Shown: positions 408 through 56,935 of the stretch, in pieces
Layout of the letters: each line of letters opens with the position of its first letter
Numbering within the stretch: position 1 is the first letter of the stretch
Source: a virus
DNA: 59,647 bases
Reading direction: 5' to 3' (one strand)
IMG/VR virus record: IMGVR_UViG_3300044726_000022
Span: 1 to 59,647 of that record
Position numbers and translations under genes: made by a program
The notes under the pieces: model-generated
Told to the model about the DNA's origin: nothing
Seen by the model: only the letters and a program-made list of their open reading frames with translations
Database searches by the model: none

Positions 408-1234
408 TGGCTCAGCGCCCGGAAGAGATCACCATCAGGAGTATTGGCACCCTGCCAGGGCGACTGCCGCTGAACGAGGGGAACGTCCTCGCGCTCATGC
501 AGTCGATCAAGGAGGTTGGCCTGCTCCAGCCCATCGTCGTGGCGCGCAAGCGCCACGGCGTCTTTCTGGTGGCAGGGTATCACCGGCTGGAGGCGGCCAA
601 GCGCCTCAAGCACAAGGTCGTCACCGCCCTGGTCGAGAACGAGGACAGCCCGGCGGTCGAGCGCTGGCAGCTCCTCGCCGAGATCGATGAGAACCTCATC
701 CGCCGGGAGCTGACGGCAGCGCAGCGTGCCAGCCTGATCGGCCGCCGCAAGGCCGCCTACGAGGCGGTGCATCCTGAGACGAAGCACGGCGGCGCGAAGG
801 GCAACGTCGGGGAGGGGCGCGGCAAGGCCCCGGCTATTAAAGGCGCAAAGTCTGCGCCTTTAATAGGGGGCTCCTTCGTAGAGGACACCGCGACCAAGAC
901 CGGCCGCTCGACGCGCGCCGTCGAAGCAGACGCCACCCGCGCCAAGCGCCTCGGCGACGATCTCGGCAAGGTGGTTGGCACCTCGCTCGACAAGGGCGCT
1001 GAGCTGGATGCGCTGTCGGCGATGCCTGCGGAAGAGCGTGCGCCGATCATCGAGCGCGCGGTCGCTGGTGAGCGGGTGAGTGCCGTCAGGGATGACCCAC
1101 TGGTGGAGGCTAATCTCAAGCGCGCCTGGGAGGCGTTCCGCTCGGTCTGGCACCGGGCCCCTCCCGGCGCGAGGGCGGAGTTCGTCAGCATCAACCGCGA
1201 AGCTCTGCAAGAAATGTTCGACCACGAGCCTTGA
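407..1234 (+). CDS. ParB N-terminal domain (Srx-like) protein
   Basis: 275 aa. ...EVGLLQPIVVARKRHGVFLVAGYHRLEAAKRL... is the classic ParB/Srx box. Start shares one base with the upstream stop (TGATG). Confidence 0.85.
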   Translation: MAQRPEEITIRSIGTLPGRLPLNEGNVLALMQSIKEVGLLQPIVVARKRHGVFLVAGYHRLEAAKRLKHKVVTALVENEDSPAVERWQLLAEIDENLIRRELTAAQRASLIGRRKAAYEAVHPETKHGGAKGNVGEGRGKAPAIKGAKSAPLIGGSFVEDTATKTGRSTRAVEADATRAKRLGDDLGKVVGTSLDKGAELDALSAMPAEERAPIIERAVAGERVSAVRDDPLVEANLKRAWEAFRSVWHRAPPGARAEFVSINREALQEMFDHEP

Positions 1235-2642: not shown

Positions 2643-3604
2643 CCGACGCCTACGCATACTGGTACGCCAAGCTCGCTGGAGAGGACCCTGATCCTCCGAC
2701 TGACCGCACGCAGCCGCCTGCCGGTCGCTGGCGCACGCAGGGCGGACAGCCGGTCGCCATCTGGCCCGACGCCAAGCAGCCCGGCTTGATGCAGGGCCGG
2801 ATCGGCATCGGCGAGAAGCGCCGCAAGCTCTCCGAGCGCGAGCTGGCCAGCATGGGCGAGATGGGCTCGTTCGGTGTCGCGATCACGCAAGCCGTCTACG
2901 AGGATGTCGCCGTGCGCGGCGAGCCGTGGCCTGACATGGACCCGGTGCTGCACGAGCAGCTCAAGCAGGCGGCGCAGCCTGGGTCCGGCCACAACCAACC
3001 GCCGACCGATCCATACGACGTGCTCGCCGAGCAGATCGGGGCCGCCACGAAGGGCACCAACGACTACGAGGTGATCGACAGCGACGAGCAGGCGGCCAGG
3101 GCGCAGAGCCTGCGCGTGCGCCTCAATGAATTGAGCCGGGGAGCTGACGATGAGCGCGAGCGGCTCAAGCGGCCTCACCTCGATGCCGGGCAGAAGATCG
3201 ACGCCCGCTGGATGCCGCTGGTGCGGCTTGCGAAGGACGCCGCCGCGTATCTGGCGACGAAGATGAGCGCCTGGGAGACGCTGAAGGTACGGCGTGGGCG
3301 GGAGGCCCAGGAGGCTCAACGGCGGCAGGAGGAAGAAGCCCAGCAACGGGACATCACCCTGCCGCCGACGGAGGCACCGCCGCCGCCCGCCGATGCACCT
3401 GGGAGGATCAGGGGCGCGTATGGCCGGGCGGCGGCGGTGACGACCGTGAAGGTGGTCGTGGTCGAGGATTGGCCCGCAGCCGCAGCCGCCCTGTCGTTCG
3501 ACCCTGGCGTCCAGGCCGCCGTCCGTAAGGCGGCTCAGCGCGCCGTCGATCTCGGGCAAGAGGTCGCAGGCGTCACCTACACCGAACAGAGGAAAGTGAA
3601 ATGA
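2639..3604 (+). CDS. hypothetical coiled-coil protein upstream of recT (possible recombination accessory protein)
   Basis: 321 aa from ATG 2639 (ATGA overlap; the track ORF begins at 2621). Central charged helical region. Its position directly upstream of RecT is the only functional hint. Confidence 0.7.
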   Translation: MTDAYAYWYAKLAGEDPDPPTDRTQPPAGRWRTQGGQPVAIWPDAKQPGLMQGRIGIGEKRRKLSERELASMGEMGSFGVAITQAVYEDVAVRGEPWPDMDPVLHEQLKQAAQPGSGHNQPPTDPYDVLAEQIGAATKGTNDYEVIDSDEQAARAQSLRVRLNELSRGADDERERLKRPHLDAGQKIDARWMPLVRLAKDAAAYLATKMSAWETLKVRRGREAQEAQRRQEEEAQQRDITLPPTEAPPPPADAPGRIRGAYGRAAAVTTVKVVVVEDWPAAAAALSFDPGVQAAVRKAAQRAVDLGQEVAGVTYTEQRKVK

Positions 3605-53459: not shown

Positions 53460-53815
53460 CAGTCACCCTTGAGCTTGCGGTTGGCGTTACCAGCCACCTC
53501 CAGCATGGTGACGACCCGGTCGATCACCCGGTCGAGGCAGGCCATGTCCTCAGTGTGCCCCTCCGCCTCCTCCCGCTCCTGCTGCAGGAAGGCGAGCACC
53601 CGCTCGTAGGCCGCGACGTCGCCGGGATGCGTGAGCTGATGCCAGGAGCGGATCGGCCGCACGACGACGTAGCCACCGACCTCCATGCCGATGGCCCCCT
53701 CGCGCGTGACGAACACCCGCGCCGGGCTCATGCCGGTCGGCGGGATCGGCTCCACGAACAGCTCCCTGTCGGTGTTCAGCCTCGGCTCGTTGTCGTCAGT
53801 CACGCACCCCTCCAT
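53459..53815 (-). CDS. hypothetical protein
   Basis: 118 aa track ORF. Confidence 0.6.
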   Translation of the reverse strand: MEGCVTDDNEPRLNTDRELFVEPIPPTGMSPARVFVTREGAIGMEVGGYVVVRPIRSWHQLTHPGDVAAYERVLAFLQQEREEAEGHTEDMACLDRVIDRVVTMLEVAGNANRKLKGD

Positions 53816-55431
53816 TTTTCTGCATGGGGTCCGTTACTCCCCCAGGCACGGCTCTCGCTGCGGCGCTTCTCCCTGATCCAGGCCTTCTTGCTCTCCTCGA
53901 TGTAGTCCAGGGTCGCGTCCGACACGAACGCCGCCGGGGCTACTTCGCGCGCTGGCCAGACGCCCAGCCGTTCGCGGTATTTGTTGGACGCCCAGCCGCT
54001 CTTGTAGCTGCGCTGCGCGCCGTAGCAGCGCAACTCCGCCAGGAACTGCAGCTTCTCGGCCATGTCGTCGGGATTGGGCCACCCGTCGCTGCGCCGCACC
54101 TTGGGCTTCGGCTTCAATTCGCGCAGCTCGCCTTCGAGCACCTCTTGCTTGCTGACGGCCTTCGCCGTGAACCCGCAGTTCGGGCACGTCGCGACCTTGG
54201 GCGGGCGCAGGAACGTGCATTGCGGGCACTCTTTCGGGAGCGTGATCCTGTCGGTGCGGTTGGCGCTCTTCTCGGCCCCGCAGTCGAGCCCGGTGTAGCT
54301 CTGGTCGATCTCGGTCACGAACCCCAGGCGGGTGTGGTTGTCACTGTGGTCGAGGATCAGGCAGTGGTCCTTGCCGGGCGCGGTCCTCAAGCCCCTGCCG
54401 ATGATCTGTACGAACAGCATGTCCGACTTGGTCGGGCGGCACATGCTGATGCACCGCACGTCCCAGTCTATACCTGTGGTCAAAGTGCCCACGTTCACCA
54501 CCACCGGGTAGGCACCTGACGCGAACTTCTCCCTGATCGACCGGCGGCCCTCGACCTCGATGCCTTCCTTGGTGATCTTCGTCTCGTCGCCGGTAAAGGC
54601 GTCCTGATAGCCGGTCGGGATGCCCGCTTCGAGGAACCGGCGCTGCAGCAGCTTGGCGTGCGCGCGGTCGACGGCGTAGCAGAGCGTCGGCCTCCCCTCC
54701 GCCTTCTCCAGCCACGTCTGCACCGCGTCGGCGACCAGGGCACCGCCCTGCATCACCTTGCTGGTGTCGCCCTCGTGGTAGTCGCCAGCGACCGTTCGAA
54801 CGCCGGTCATGTCAGGGTGCGACGGCGCGAACACCTTGAACGGCGACAGCCGCCCCTGCTCGATCAGATCCTCAGTCGTGGTGGCGACGATCAGGCACGG
54901 CTCGCGCTCAGCCGCCGGAACCTTCCACGGCCCCTGGAACAGCTTCCCCAGGCCCTTCGTCCATGGCGTGGCGCTGAGCCCGATCACCGGGCACTGCCAG
55001 CCGTCGACCTCGCTGAACCACTGCGTGTAGATCTGGAAGAGCCGATGCACCTCGTCCACCAGCACGAGATCCGCTGGCCACATTTTTCGCTTCATCAGCG
55101 TCTGCACCGACGCGATCTGCACCGGCATGTCCCAGTGCGATAGCTCGTGCGTGGCCTGGATGACGCCGACCTCGGTAATGCCCTGGCTCCTGAACATCTC
55201 GACCGTCTGGTCGATCAGGCCGAGCGCCGGAACGGTGAATAGCACCCGCTTATTGCGGGACAGCGCTCCCCTCACAATGGCGCTCGCCAGGACCGTCTTG
55301 CCGAACCCGGTCGGGGCTTGCATGCACACCCGGCGGTGACCCGCCGCTATCTTCTGTCGGAGAGCCTGCAAGGCCTCCATCTGGTCGTCGCGCAGCTCTT
55401 TCAGCGTCGTGCTCGGTGTTACGTCCAGCAT
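53800..55431 (-). CDS. superfamily-2 DEAD/DEAH-box helicase with C-terminal zinc ribbon
   Basis: 543 aa. Motif I MQAPTGFGKT, motif II LVLVDEVH, motif III GLSATP. Later CPQCTFLRPPKVATCPNCGF. Leader AGGAGCACGACG-ATG. Confidence 0.9.
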   Translation of the reverse strand: MLDVTPSTTLKELRDDQMEALQALRQKIAAGHRRVCMQAPTGFGKTVLASAIVRGALSRNKRVLFTVPALGLIDQTVEMFRSQGITEVGVIQATHELSHWDMPVQIASVQTLMKRKMWPADLVLVDEVHRLFQIYTQWFSEVDGWQCPVIGLSATPWTKGLGKLFQGPWKVPAAEREPCLIVATTTEDLIEQGRLSPFKVFAPSHPDMTGVRTVAGDYHEGDTSKVMQGGALVADAVQTWLEKAEGRPTLCYAVDRAHAKLLQRRFLEAGIPTGYQDAFTGDETKITKEGIEVEGRRSIREKFASGAYPVVVNVGTLTTGIDWDVRCISMCRPTKSDMLFVQIIGRGLRTAPGKDHCLILDHSDNHTRLGFVTEIDQSYTGLDCGAEKSANRTDRITLPKECPQCTFLRPPKVATCPNCGFTAKAVSKQEVLEGELRELKPKPKVRRSDGWPNPDDMAEKLQFLAELRCYGAQRSYKSGWASNKYRERLGVWPAREVAPAAFVSDATLDYIEESKKAWIREKRRSESRAWGSNGPHAEKWRGA

Positions 55432-55717: not shown

Positions 55718-56005
55718 TCATTCCCACGGCGGCTTCGACAGGTCGCTCAGCACCTCCAGGGCGATGTCCGGCGGATTGGGCTCCAGCGGCTTCGTCTGCC
55801 TGATCCCCATCCGCTCCCGGTCGTAGGGCGTGAGCTGGTACCGCGCACCCTTCGCCTTGCGGCGCTCCTCCCTCCTGGCCCTGGCCTCCAGCTCGTCGCG
55901 CGGCCTGGAGGCCACCATCCTGCCGTTGTCGAGCACCTTGCCGGGCTCGTATTTTTCCTCCGTCGCCCAGTACTTCCGGGTCCGTCTCCAGTCCATCCCA
56001 GCCAT
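55718..56005 (-). CDS. hypothetical basic protein
   Basis: 95 aa from ATG 56005 (GGGAGA 5 nt upstream): MAGMDWRRTRKYWATEEKYEPGK... Confidence 0.6.
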   Translation of the reverse strand: MAGMDWRRTRKYWATEEKYEPGKVLDNGRMVASRPRDELEARARREERRKAKGARYQLTPYDRERMGIRQTKPLEPNPPDIALEVLSDLSKPPWE

Positions 56006-56509
56006 GCAAATCTCCCGATTTTGGACATACCTCCACTTTGTACCTCCAGAGATGGAGGCACGTTCCTCAAGGGGCGTCGAGGCGCGGAAGTGGACACCGC
56101 GCACGGCTTGGAGCCGTCGTCCCACTCGACGAAAGGGCTGCGCGCACGCCTGGGGCTGGACTGCGATGTGGGCCGGGACCACCGAGCGGACACCACGCAG
56201 CAACGGTTCTTGGCCAGCCATGGCCATGCTCAGCTCAGGCGGCGCTGCCTACAGTGGGATGGTGGGACCTCCGAGCACCATCCCCGCAGCAACAAGTCGC
56301 GGGCCGTCTGAACGACCTATGGCGGGATGACCTTGGGAGGGGGATTGATGCGCGGACGCCCATAGACTATATGGGGCACACGCTCTCCTCGTGGGGACAC
56401 CGAGCCACAGGATTGAGCGAGTACCGGGAATGGTTGGTCGTGCTCCCATCCCGGTGCGACCCTTTCGGGCCGCTCCTCAATCTGGGGGGCGGCCCGCTTC
56501 ATGTCAAGC
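56006..56509. other. structured non-coding segment (candidate ncRNA and/or iteron-type origin)
   Basis: No frame with the GC3 bias of real genes. Multiple 5-9 bp stems, including a nested three-way junction (56076-56130) and a 9-bp stem (56256-56284). Four same-orientation GGAC(A/C)CC-type repeats. Orphan leader copy at 56431-56447. Confidence 0.5.
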
Positions 56510-56935
56510 TCAGCGCGGCCTCGCCGGGATCTTGTAGATCGCCTTGTGGTGCGCGCAGTACGGCTCCTCGCCGATCCGGTCGAGCGCGCAGGTGCGCCAG
56601 ATATGCGGATCAGTGCCCTTCTCGTAGACCACCAGCGCCCGGCAATGTCTGTGATCGCGGTCGACCCACGGGATCGTCTCGCCGTGCTTCCGCACCGGCC
56701 TGGGGATAACTATGGGGATAACCGGCGACGGCTTCTTCCACCGACGGTGCTGCACCAGTCCGCTCCTGGCCCCCTGGCTGGAACCGCCCAGGCCCTGCAG
56801 GCCCATGCGGCGGACGTGGCCCATGATGGCCGACCGCGTGCTCTTGATCGCCTTAGCTATCTCGCCGGACGGCCTCTTGTCGAGCCACATCCGGCGGATC
56901 GTAGCCTTGTCTTCGTCACTCGTGGGGTGGGACAT
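56510..56935 (-). CDS. gcrA: GcrA-like cell-cycle transcriptional regulator
   Basis: 141 aa. N-terminal ...ATIRRMWLDKRPSGEIAKAIKSTRSAIMGHVRRMGL matches the GcrA N-terminal DNA-binding domain. C-terminal ...C..(x)..EEPYCAHHKAIY matches the GcrA C-terminal Cys/His pattern. Confidence 0.8.
   Translation of the reverse strand: MSHPTSDEDKATIRRMWLDKRPSGEIAKAIKSTRSAIMGHVRRMGLQGLGGSSQGARSGLVQHRRWKKPSPVIPIVIPRPVRKHGETIPWVDRDHRHCRALVVYEKGTDPHIWRTCALDRIGEEPYCAHHKAIYKIPARPR

Follow-up and report, generated by a model that had tools for sequence, protein, structure and literature searches.

Large structured RNAs have seldom been described from phages, and the known examples come mainly from Firmicutes and marine metagenomes. 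The small antisense and immunity RNAs of phages, P22 sar, lambda OOP, P1/P7 c4 and P4 CI, operate in immunity or anti-repressor circuits. HK022 put is an antitermination RNA made of two simple hairpins, and the T4 gene 32 pseudoknot is a small structure that lies at the very 5' end, ahead of a replication gene whose product binds it. In ColE1/pMB1 plasmids, binding of RNA I at the 5' end of RNA II is thought to redirect folding far downstream (cf. PMC12966454). Plasmid countertranscripts also act on rep leaders, as with CopA and CopT of R1, the Inc RNA and activator pseudoknot of IncI-alpha/IncB, RNAII of pMV158 and the attenuation systems of pT181 and pIP501; in IncI/IncB, the regulated feature is a long-range leader pseudoknot near the rep start (PMC4485353, PMC5703833, PMC10286972).

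A comparable arrangement may head the replication operon of an uncultivated phage. In the window, the 59,647-nt stretch of viral DNA analysed here, a first-pass annotation singled out positions 56006-56509 as a half-kilobase segment without a gene, which is borne out by the lack of any coding signal there, and offered two readings, a structured RNA co-transcribed with the operon or an iteron-type origin. The RNA reading is supported for most of the segment, with conserved helices, compensatory changes and wobbles confined to the gene strand at ~56030-56230; opposite-strand signals are found at 56345-56466. The explanation preferred here, though tentatively and with somewhat less than even confidence, is that the gap forms a two-part RNA control region, a structured leader that would be under countertranscript control.

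The element is present in 15 distinct copies, all in uncultured phage or metagenome contigs (nhmmer E values of 1e-33 to 1e-112), with a nearly invariant loop, block A, serving as the seed of all database matches. Its orientation is the same in 15/15 copies, and a gap of 25-58 nt always separates it from the downstream start of the first gene in a replication module (small basic protein, primase and/or helicase); it keeps this place before the primase/helicase module even where the first gene is a different one. In 11/15 members the first gene is a homologue of the 95-aa gene found in the window. The 95-aa protein matches no Pfam or PHROG family, and its AlphaFold model (pLDDT 59) is too poor for use.

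The family matches no catalogued RNA family and is a new one, with 15 members and covariation in its favor. The Rfam scan proposed in the first-pass annotation was run on the window and 14 relatives and gave 0 matches at the gathering thresholds of Rfam 15, ctRNA, CopA and RNAI-type families included; lenient E-value searches returned only noise (E >= 0.33, scores far under the cut-offs). ARAGORN detects no tRNA or tmRNA in the window. The source phages are uncultured and probably alphaproteobacterial. No viral loci were found with the gcrA-like protein encoded upstream as query, and neither the window nor the L007 element has a blastn match among cultured phages and plasmids. A 20-mer scan of 185,579 reference genomes yielded 104 stretches, none recognised by nhmmer as a family member, so that the scan provides no host assignment. 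Three further loci (L034, L070 and L079) are weak nhmmer matches, and L070, the one inspected, appears to be coding.

The whole gap folds more stably than 100/100 shuffles on both strands (z = -2.9 on the gene strand, -3.65 on the opposite strand). The stems GTCGAG/CTCGAC, GCGCGG/CCGCGC and ACGGCT/AGCCGT and a 9-bp stem are all present where the first-pass annotation placed them, as are additional stems at 56043-58, 56358-77, 56423-55 and 56466-97. Conservation extends to the three-way junction and five further helices within ~56030-56230, and compensatory changes, which the same annotation proposed to test for, occur in the conserved helices by both a partner-swap test and a structural alignment, A5. 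In the swap test, the native partner strand of nine helices beats partners swapped in from other members (0-18 of 2000 swaps match). In A5, 19/29 pairs of the junction and pseudoknot show double changes and 95.2% are paired, a percentage inflated by the hand-fitting of A5 to the structure. The swap test and slid-register controls are fairer measures: the covariation score of the junction and pseudoknot is 0.441, against 0.119 for shuffles (0/500 reach it) and 0.03-0.07 for slid registers. In the raw MAFFT alignment the helices are out of register, and a column-pair covariation scan of it gave no usable result. The features of the gene-strand domain and its surroundings are as follows.

55718-56016, minus: first downstream gene, 95 aa (MAGMDWRRTRKYWATEEKYEPGK...), GC3 0.92, with Shine-Dalgarno sequence GGGAG at 56012-16
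56032-56038, minus: pseudoknot 3' strand AAGUGGA, 26 nt ahead of the start codon (56005)
56043-56058, minus: hairpin CCUCCA-UCUC-UGGAGG, by alignment a shortened equivalent of helix He
56076-56130, minus: three-way junction, conserved in 15/15 members
56125-30 with 56076-81, minus: closing helix Ha, GUCGAG/CUCGAC, 100% paired with double changes at 6/7 pairs (A5), 0/2000 swaps
56118-24, minus: 7-nt purine junction UGGGACG, part of the three-way junction
56103-08 with 56112-17, minus: arm Hb, ACGGCU/AGCCGU, 99% paired with double changes at 5/7 (A5), 0/2000 swaps
56082-87 with 56097-102, minus: arm Hc, GCGCGG/CCGCGC, 100% paired with double changes at 5/6 (A5)
56088-56096, minus: pseudoknot 5' strand, the Hc loop UGUCCACUU, pairing with AAGUGGA at 56032-38, 18/2000 swaps match
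56196-201 with 56160-65, minus: helix S3, GCUGCG/CGCAGU (module 56160-56201), sequence varying by subtype with pairing kept, 0/2000 swaps
56166-94, minus: block A, the 30-nt almost invariant loop GGUGUCCGCUCGGUGGUCCCGGCCCACAU closed by S3, the most conserved sequence of the family
56212-56225, minus: hairpin S2, GGCCA-UGGC-UGGCC, in relatives GGUCGA...UCGGCC
56256-56293, minus: second, lineage-specific copy of the S3/block A module, a second partial nhmmer match, which includes the perfect 9-bp stem
56256-64 with 56276-84: the perfect 9-bp stem GGGATGGTG/CACCATCCC
56479-56507, minus: candidate gene-strand promoter read from sequence, with a perfect -35 TTGACA (56502-07), a 17-nt spacer and a weak -10 CAGATT (56479-84)

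G-U wobbles assign the middle and 3' part of the element to the gene (minus) strand. The junction has 26 wobble cells, all for one strand only, among them sense-only wobbles at columns 16-31 (UG 6, GU 3) and columns 21-26 (UG 13). S2 forms 56 pairs in the sense direction, 11 of them G-U, against 45 antisense pairs with no G-U, and its internal U-G wobble in relatives is a C-A mismatch on the other strand. The stability advantage of the gene strand, which comes with sense-only G-U pairs, is clear for S2 and Hb and slight for He and the pseudoknot. For He, which no swap of 2000 matches, the energies are -12.1 kcal/mol sense and -10.5 kcal/mol antisense, although such comparisons between strands are partly biased by the G-rich opposite strand of the 5' domain. 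He in relatives encloses 60-150 nt of variable hairpins plus an ACGAGUAYUC box.

The pseudoknot shows compensatory changes in L100 (CAACUUU/AAAGUUG), L115 (CCUCUUU/AAAGGGA) and L245 (an extra G-C), and its 3' strand belongs to an invariant GGA(A/G)GAAAGUGG block of the relatives. The first proposal of RNAalifold, GGUGG of block A with CCACU, was dropped in favor of CCACUUU/AAAGUGG, since the former is broken uncompensated in L255, L248, L271, L115 and L100 and the latter is compensated. GGUC-GAUC could pair with GAUC...GACC only at the expense of the S2 hairpin, for which the support is better, and this proposal was also rejected. A tertiary pairing between UCCC of block A and GGGA of the junction is possible, with variation that is not consistently compensatory.

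A riboswitch would combine a conserved ligand-binding fold with an expression platform. The element has a conserved fold with an almost invariant loop and a junction; in the stretch from the element to the start codon, neither a terminator nor a hairpin that would sequester the Shine-Dalgarno sequence is seen. The mini-ORF that can be drawn after AAAGUGG is not preserved as a reading frame in the relatives. The candidate gene-strand promoter directly follows the stop codon of the gcrA-like gene, is not called by the promoter scan and is not conserved in relatives; read-through from the co-oriented upstream gene might equally well supply the transcript.

On the opposite strand, signals of a promoter and a terminator lie in the upstream third of the gap (56345-56466); the first-pass annotation missed them. 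The features of this third are these.

56345-56373, plus: promoter-like site, -35 TTGATG (56345-50), 17-nt spacer and -10 TATATG (56368-73), TTGA invariant in 14/14
56358-56377, strand unassigned: hairpin P3, GCCCCAUA...UAUGGGC with an AT-rich loop, 0/2000 swaps, weak strand preference leaning antisense
56388-56404, strand-neutral: hairpin P2, CUCG-GUGUCCCCA-CGAG, 0/2000 swaps, stem CCUUG/CAAGG in relatives
56423-56455, plus: GC-rich hairpin P1, ACCGGGAAUGG...CCAUCCCGGU, read as a Rho-independent terminator, stem different in each member with pairing kept, 0/2000 swaps
56379-56466, plus: predicted antisense small RNA of ~85 nt, comprising a 5' tail, P2, a conserved linker and the terminator hairpin, based on the promoter-like site and the terminator

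A scripted test detects TTGA with a TA-type hexamer 15-18 nt behind it in 13/14 members, and by eye the pair is at the homologous position in 14/14; in L271, the script picked a site other than the homologous pair. Only 9% of shuffles contain such a pair anywhere in the sequence. A strict consensus promoter scan finds the opposite-strand site in L115 only, and strict scanning of the window calls neither a promoter nor a terminator. The invariant TTGA and TA could instead be RNA structural motifs rather than promoter boxes, with the -10-like box of the opposite strand lying in the P3 loop.

P1 is the more stable on the antisense strand, with 189 pairs (25 G-U) and -353 kcal/mol summed, against 169 pairs (8 G-U) and -290 kcal/mol in the sense direction, and only the antisense strand has a U-rich tail after it. 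It is called as a terminator in 3/7 loci scanned (L115, L248 and L255); in the window, where the tail that follows is weak and U-poor, no call is made. The predicted antisense RNA folds into two hairpins (-38.5 kcal/mol, z = -1.8), P2 and P1, in keeping with the one or two stem-loops by which a ctRNA presents loops for kissing with its target; the linker between them reads CGGAUUU in relatives and AGGAUUG in the window. These signals suggest that a separate small antisense RNA of ~85 nt is encoded opposite the leader. For the 5' half of P2, an alternative long-range pairing with the region past P3 covaries as well (0/2000 swaps). P3 and this long-range helix lean toward the antisense strand, and as antisense structure they would require a longer antisense RNA, for which a promoter was searched and none found.

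In the preferred reading, ~56030-56230 would be transcribed from the gene strand as a leader RNA comprising S2, S3 with its 30-nt loop and the three-way junction, one hairpin loop of which would pair with a tail 26 nt before the start codon of the first gene to form the pseudoknot. From ~56345-56466, the opposite strand would give rise to an ~85-nt antisense RNA with its own promoter and hairpin terminator, complementary over its whole length to the leader's 5' part. Pairing of this RNA with the nascent leader might alter folding of the downstream domain, as in plasmid countertranscript systems, and the altered fold would set the output of the small basic protein, primase and helicase. What the sequences show directly is that the element is conserved, that its helices form with a strand polarity, and that promoter-like and terminator-like signals are present; production of both RNAs, their interaction and the regulatory outcome are inferred. 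As an inferred function, the element most likely governs the time at which the replication genes are turned on.

Other accounts of the gap fare worse. That it holds a decayed or unrecognised protein-coding gene is scarcely credible, even though long open frames span the region (55747-56196 and 56317-56502 on the minus strand, 56038-56709 on the plus strand), phase-1 GC is slightly elevated across 56060-56360 and a 71-aa gene is called within the element of one relative. GC3 of the ORF fragments is 0.51-0.74 against 0.87-0.92 in the flanking genes, and none of the 5 gap ORFs reaches a Pfam cut-off, the sole listing being SpeFL at E = 0.1. Across the 15 relatives, period-3 conservation is absent from the element (ratios of 0.41 and 0.79, compared with 2.57 in the adjacent gene), 82% of pairwise indels have a length not divisible by 3 and no conserved ORF of the kind that would mark a decayed gene is found; the sole conserved stretch lies in one frame in the window and in another in L001. 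Codon-position bias, frame-preserving evolution and protein homologues, by which a gene or pseudogene would be recognised, are all lacking. An element acting as DNA, an origin or operator whose repeats and inverted repeats are protein-binding sites (iterons, or DnaA-like boxes such as TGTCCAC), is very unlikely. The site does adjoin helicase and primase genes, GCTCGG(T/A)GGTCCC occurs three times in one orientation in the window, and TGTCCACTT and AAGTGGA form an inverted pair resembling a degenerate DnaA box, the consensus of which we take to be TTATCCACA. The four copies of GGAC(A/C)CC(G/A)NGC in the first-pass annotation are exact at 56092, 56188 and 56395, but the copy at 56176 has an extra base; exact matches in the 59.6-kb window number 5, with 3 in the gap and 1.5 expected. 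The actual repeat is GGGACC(A/T)CCGAGC at 56175, 56264 and 56393, irregularly spaced by 89 and 129 nt. Part of this repetition is a 30-nt direct repeat of 77% identity (56175-56204 and 56264-56293), and among relatives a similar S3/block A duplication is seen in L013 only. The motif is single-copy in 13/15 members, so that the repeats are no family feature, and Tandem Repeats Finder reports no tandem repeats. Neither three or more regularly spaced direct repeats of ~17-22 bp nor an adjacent AT-rich DNA-unwinding element is found; GC over 200-nt windows is 0.64-0.685, no stretch of the gap is AT-rich and the lowest 40-nt GC (0.45) lies at the ribosome-binding end. On these counts, the iteron-type origin is not supported. 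Helices that vary freely yet stay complementary, with wobbles for one strand only (26 cells in the junction; S2 11 vs 0), also argue against a DNA-level element, since symmetric protein sites do not predict such a pattern.

The remaining alternatives accept a functional RNA and differ on what it does. A free-standing ncRNA that acts in trans, for example by binding a phage or host protein or by countering host defence, and that merely happens to be encoded ahead of the replication genes, with the junction and loop as its functional core, is unlikely: the strong conserved fold, the 30-nt almost invariant loop typical of a binding surface, the lack of a recognised expression platform and the duplication of the module in two lineages would all suit it, but the middle domain has no conserved promoter directly upstream and no terminator downstream, and the pseudoknot 3' strand lies at a fixed short distance from the next start in all members, which fits a leader better. 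A ColE1-type RNA-primed origin is decidedly unlikely. Here the long gene-strand RNA would serve as pre-primer, and replication would begin once it had hybridised to the DNA and been processed, at a frequency set by the antisense RNA against its 5' end. The predicted architecture matches such an origin, with a short antisense RNA directed at the 5' end of a several-hundred-nucleotide sense RNA that ends beside replication genes, the element travels with the replication module even when the first gene differs, and L001 has an AT-rich repeat and short iterons ~300 nt upstream. Against it, the sense RNA in every member enters a ribosome-binding site and gene 25-58 nt on, inspection of the alignments by eye reveals neither a conserved hybrid anchor (G-rich/C-rich) nor an A-run at which cleavage could take place, and AT-rich sequence is lacking in the window. 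ColE1 depends on host RNase H and Pol I, whereas these phages encode their own primase and helicase. A bolder claim, that the gene-strand domain is a new class of large functional phage RNA, either a ColE1-like pre-primer under antisense copy control or a sensor of a metabolite or replication protein that times the start of replication, seems rather unlikely.

The element family occupies the exact site at which replication genes would be controlled. If the antisense-plus-leader model is true, plasmid-style countertranscript control extends to phage replication modules and a compact, orthogonal RNA regulator is gained; if the RNA is instead a primer or sensor, it would represent a new mechanism for starting or timing phage replication. 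For annotators, the spurious ORF calls within the element, of which at least one relative has an example, are to be dropped.

The proposed system resembles ColE1/pMB1 in that a small antisense RNA would arise from within, and be complementary to, the 5' end of a long folded sense RNA beside replication functions. It differs in having a sense RNA that runs on into protein-coding replication genes, in lacking an evident RNase H-type primer site or R-loop anchor, in showing no sequence or Rfam similarity, and in belonging to a phage rather than a plasmid. With the plasmid rep countertranscripts, it would share a short stem-loop RNA that ends in a hairpin terminator and is encoded across from a replication-gene leader, as predicted here. 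In the phage element, however, 250-350 nt separate the antisense target from the downstream start codon, to which it is thus not adjacent, a conserved structured domain of 200-330 nt is interposed, and no leader peptide or attenuator terminator is found. P22 sar, lambda OOP, P1/P7 c4 and P4 CI are likewise small structured RNAs of phages, acting by complementarity on early or replication-proximal genes, but these known RNAs have no large conserved three-way-junction domain and the phage element has no Rfam match. Neither HK022 put nor the T4 gene 32 pseudoknot has a 30-nt invariant loop, a three-way junction or a linked antisense RNA, but both are cis-acting folded RNAs that open an early operon, as the leader described here is predicted to do.

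The minus strand carries all of the genes around the gap at 56006-56509 and is referred to here as the gene strand:

56510..56935, minus: gcrA-like gene upstream of the gap, matching the GcrA N-terminal region of Pfam only weakly and below threshold (E = 4e-5; 24.4 bits versus a cut-off of 26.9)
55718..56005, minus: 95-aa gene downstream of the gap
Minus, downstream of the gap: 154-aa ORF
53800..55431, minus: helicase, downstream of the gap

The first-pass annotation described the gap as gene-free, and coding tests bear this out. No frame is coding-like, GC3 is 0.51-0.74 in the ORF fragments of the gap versus 0.87-0.92 in neighbouring genes, and none of the fragments reaches the Pfam cut-off. 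That the gap is a decayed gene is very improbable, since conservation of the element it carries lacks three-base periodicity family-wide (ratios of 0.41 and 0.79 versus 2.57 in an adjacent coding control) and 82% of pairwise indel runs within the element are not multiples of three. The 95-aa protein is small and basic, with the motif DWRK.RKF..EEKY.PGKVL.NG...PRD.LE.RAR. A search of 5.8 billion proteins yields just three homologues; no family in Pfam or PHROG matches, and the structure model is poor (pLDDT 59). Within the 95-aa gene lies a perfect 8-bp inverted repeat, GCCTCCAG-N13-CTGGAGGC (55884-55912), that hits a frameshift-element model weakly, below threshold, on both strands.

In the contigs of the three homologues and in one IMG/VR contig, 540-900 nt without a gene lie upstream of the 95-aa homologue, and blastn recovers conserved non-coding blocks among these relatives (e.g., contigs L001 and L004: 192 nt, 76%, E = 1e-29). 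A scan of public collections for a degenerate 20-mer drawn from the best-conserved block and for a second motif leaves, after nhmmer filtering, 15 distinct members of the element; none occurs in 185,579 reference genomes or in cultured phages and plasmids. Every member shares the orientation of its downstream genes, and 25-58 nt separate its end from a Shine-Dalgarno sequence and start codon, usually those of a small basic protein that is followed by primase and/or helicase. Because this placement is kept where the first gene differs (L006, L100, L115, and L245), the element is tied to the head of the replication module and not to one ORF. Upstream of the element, most relatives encode a conserved protein of ~178 aa (MTFTG.VLALDLATTTGWA...; L002 3825-4364, L004 3921-4457, L007 1930-2469, also L115, L242, L248, and L271) without a Pfam match; the window has the gcrA-like gene there.

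Read on the gene strand, the element comprises:

56423-55: P1, GC-rich hairpin, 5' domain
Between P1 and P2: conserved linker, 5' domain
56388-404: P2 hairpin, 5' domain
56358-77: P3 hairpin with an AT-rich loop, 5' domain
After P3: block CAUCAA-CCCC, 5' domain
56212-25: S2 hairpin, middle domain
56196-201 / 56160-65: S3 helix, middle domain, closing a nearly invariant 30-nt loop, block A
56076-130: three-way junction of helices Ha, Hb, and Hc, middle domain
56043-58: He helix, 3' domain, reduced to this hairpin in the window
3' domain: block GGA(A/G)GAAAGUGG
56032-38: AAGUGGA, forming a pseudoknot with the Hc loop (UGUCCACUU)

At two of its junctions the helices of the three-way junction abut without intervening nucleotides, and a purine-rich strand of 7 nt forms the third. 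In relatives, He surrounds variable hairpins and an ACGAGUAYUC box. In L115, the 5' and middle domains are separated by an additional hairpin with a T-run (862-885, plus strand), likewise interpreted as an antisense-strand terminator.

Every stem listed in the first-pass annotation is present at the coordinates given there, and its impression of dense structure holds: the whole gap folds better than 100 of 100 dinucleotide shuffles on both strands (z = -2.9 and -3.65). When the duplex energy of each member's own strand pair is compared with 2000 derangements pairing strands across members, native partners outperform swapped ones in all nine helices. Native pairing is matched by none of the 2000 swaps for P1, P2, P3, S3, Ha, Hb, and He, by three for S2, and by 18 for the pseudoknot. 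The alignment of the junction and pseudoknot was hand-fitted to the structure, with N padding to make MAFFT keep register, which inflates its 95.2% of paired cells; 19 of 29 pairs in this hand-fitted alignment change on both sides. The swap test and slid-register controls are free of this bias. The covariation score is 0.441 versus 0.119 in shuffles, none of 500 reaching the observed value, and is 0.03-0.07 when registers are slid by 1-3 columns. Nine versions of the Ha sequence are present, each with Watson-Crick pairing throughout.

The junction and S2 show gene-strand polarity. In the junction, 26 cells hold G-U or U-G in the gene-strand reading and would be A-C mismatches on the other strand, and S2 forms 56 pairs (11 G-U) on the gene strand versus 45 (0 G-U) on the opposite one. 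The gene strand also gives greater stability, clearly for Hb and slightly for He and the pseudoknot. The element is thus conserved, folded, and strand-polar, and its covarying helices support the structured RNA proposed at first pass, which is presumably transcribed.

P1 favours the opposite strand (189 pairs, 25 G-U, -353 kcal/mol versus 169, 8, and -290 kcal/mol), and a similar lean is seen for P3 and for a long-range helix that covaries, although the G-richness of this strand biases such energy comparisons in the 5' domain. A U-rich tail follows P1 on the opposite strand only, and this is also the only strand on which a scan calls P1 a terminator, which it does in L115, L248, and L255. The opposite strand further carries a TTGA that does not vary among members (14 of 14), with a TA-type hexamer 15-17 nt further on, in the P3 loop (13-14 of 14 members versus 9% of shuffles). 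In the window, this promoter-like site (-35 at 56345-50, -10 at 56368-73) and P1 predict an antisense RNA of ~85 nt, from about 56380 to 56465; the window's own signals do not pass a strict consensus scan. The RNA could be longer (~150 nt) given the opposite-strand lean of P3 and the long-range helix, and a search for a matching promoter found none.

In the proposed arrangement, a small antisense RNA ended by a terminator would be encoded opposite the 5' part of a long folded RNA, within its extent and complementary to it, and the long RNA would run on into replication functions. This layout is that of plasmid replication-control regions; a structured leader RNA under countertranscript control is therefore favoured, tentatively, with the transcription of both RNAs, their interaction, and its outcome presumed. 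A free-standing RNA acting in trans is a doubtful reading, and a ColE1-like RNA-primed origin is unlikely. The 95-aa gene resembles ColE1 Rom in position, but nothing connects the two.

An origin or operator acting as DNA and bound by protein is improbable. The repeated motif noted at first pass is real, with five matches in the window versus 1.5 expected, three of them exact matches inside the gap, but it was slightly misdescribed. The underlying repeat is GGGACC(A/T)CCGAGC (56175, 56264, and 56393), and a 30-nt duplication links 56175-204 with 56264-293. The suggested iteron-type origin fails because 13 of the 15 members have just one copy of block A and the window has neither tandem repeats nor an AT-rich region. 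In L001, a stretch absent from the window (3114-3287) holds an AT-rich 23-mer repeated 2.2 times and short iterons, a 9-mer in 3.4 copies and the 10-mer CAGCACCAGC in 5.3. It is flanked by a divergent 318-aa gene on one side and the conserved RNA element on the other, ~300 nt outside the latter, and resembles an origin or centromere.

The window is a phage genome, encoding terminase, RecT, RusA, and helicase, with a weak, sub-threshold Pfam match to a P22-like portal. Its terminase is closest to those of Microcystis phage Mwe-JY13 (52%) and Brucella Tb-like phages (47.5%); these matches and the gcrA-like gene suggest an alphaproteobacterial host. GANTC, the CcrM/HinfI target, is absent from the whole 59.6-kb window (266 +/- 16 in shuffles, both strands counted), which nevertheless encodes a GcrA-like protein. 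It is also absent from the L013, L245, and L271 loci (28-44 expected), while other relatives keep it. About 45-60 nt upstream of P1 in relatives (e.g., L007 ~3290, L002 ~4560) lies a conserved CTGGACTC box that includes a GANTC site; L001, L002, L007, and L011 have it ahead of the element, and L004 and L242 have variants. The window and L271, both without any GANTC, lack this box, which might serve the leader as a GcrA-type promoter element dependent on methylation. Palindrome avoidance in the window is very broad, yet selective. CCCGGG, CCGCGG, GCCGGC, and GGCGCC are absent (77 each expected), as are nine other GC-rich 6-mers (20 each expected), and CTAG occurs four times versus 187 expected; GCGCGC, CGCGCG, CGGCCG, and GTCGAC are not avoided. 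Overall, 29 of 64 six-base palindromes are missing versus three of 48 composition-matched non-palindromes.

No Rfam family matches the element, even at lenient thresholds, and a literature search returns plasmid countertranscript systems only, with nothing of this kind in phages. Compared on architectural features, its closest working analogues are ColE1 RNA I/RNA II, pMV158, pT181, and the antisense systems of R1 and of IncI/IncB, where in IncI/IncB a leader pseudoknot is regulated. The element represents a new RNA family, backed by covariation, with a regulatory style of a known kind.
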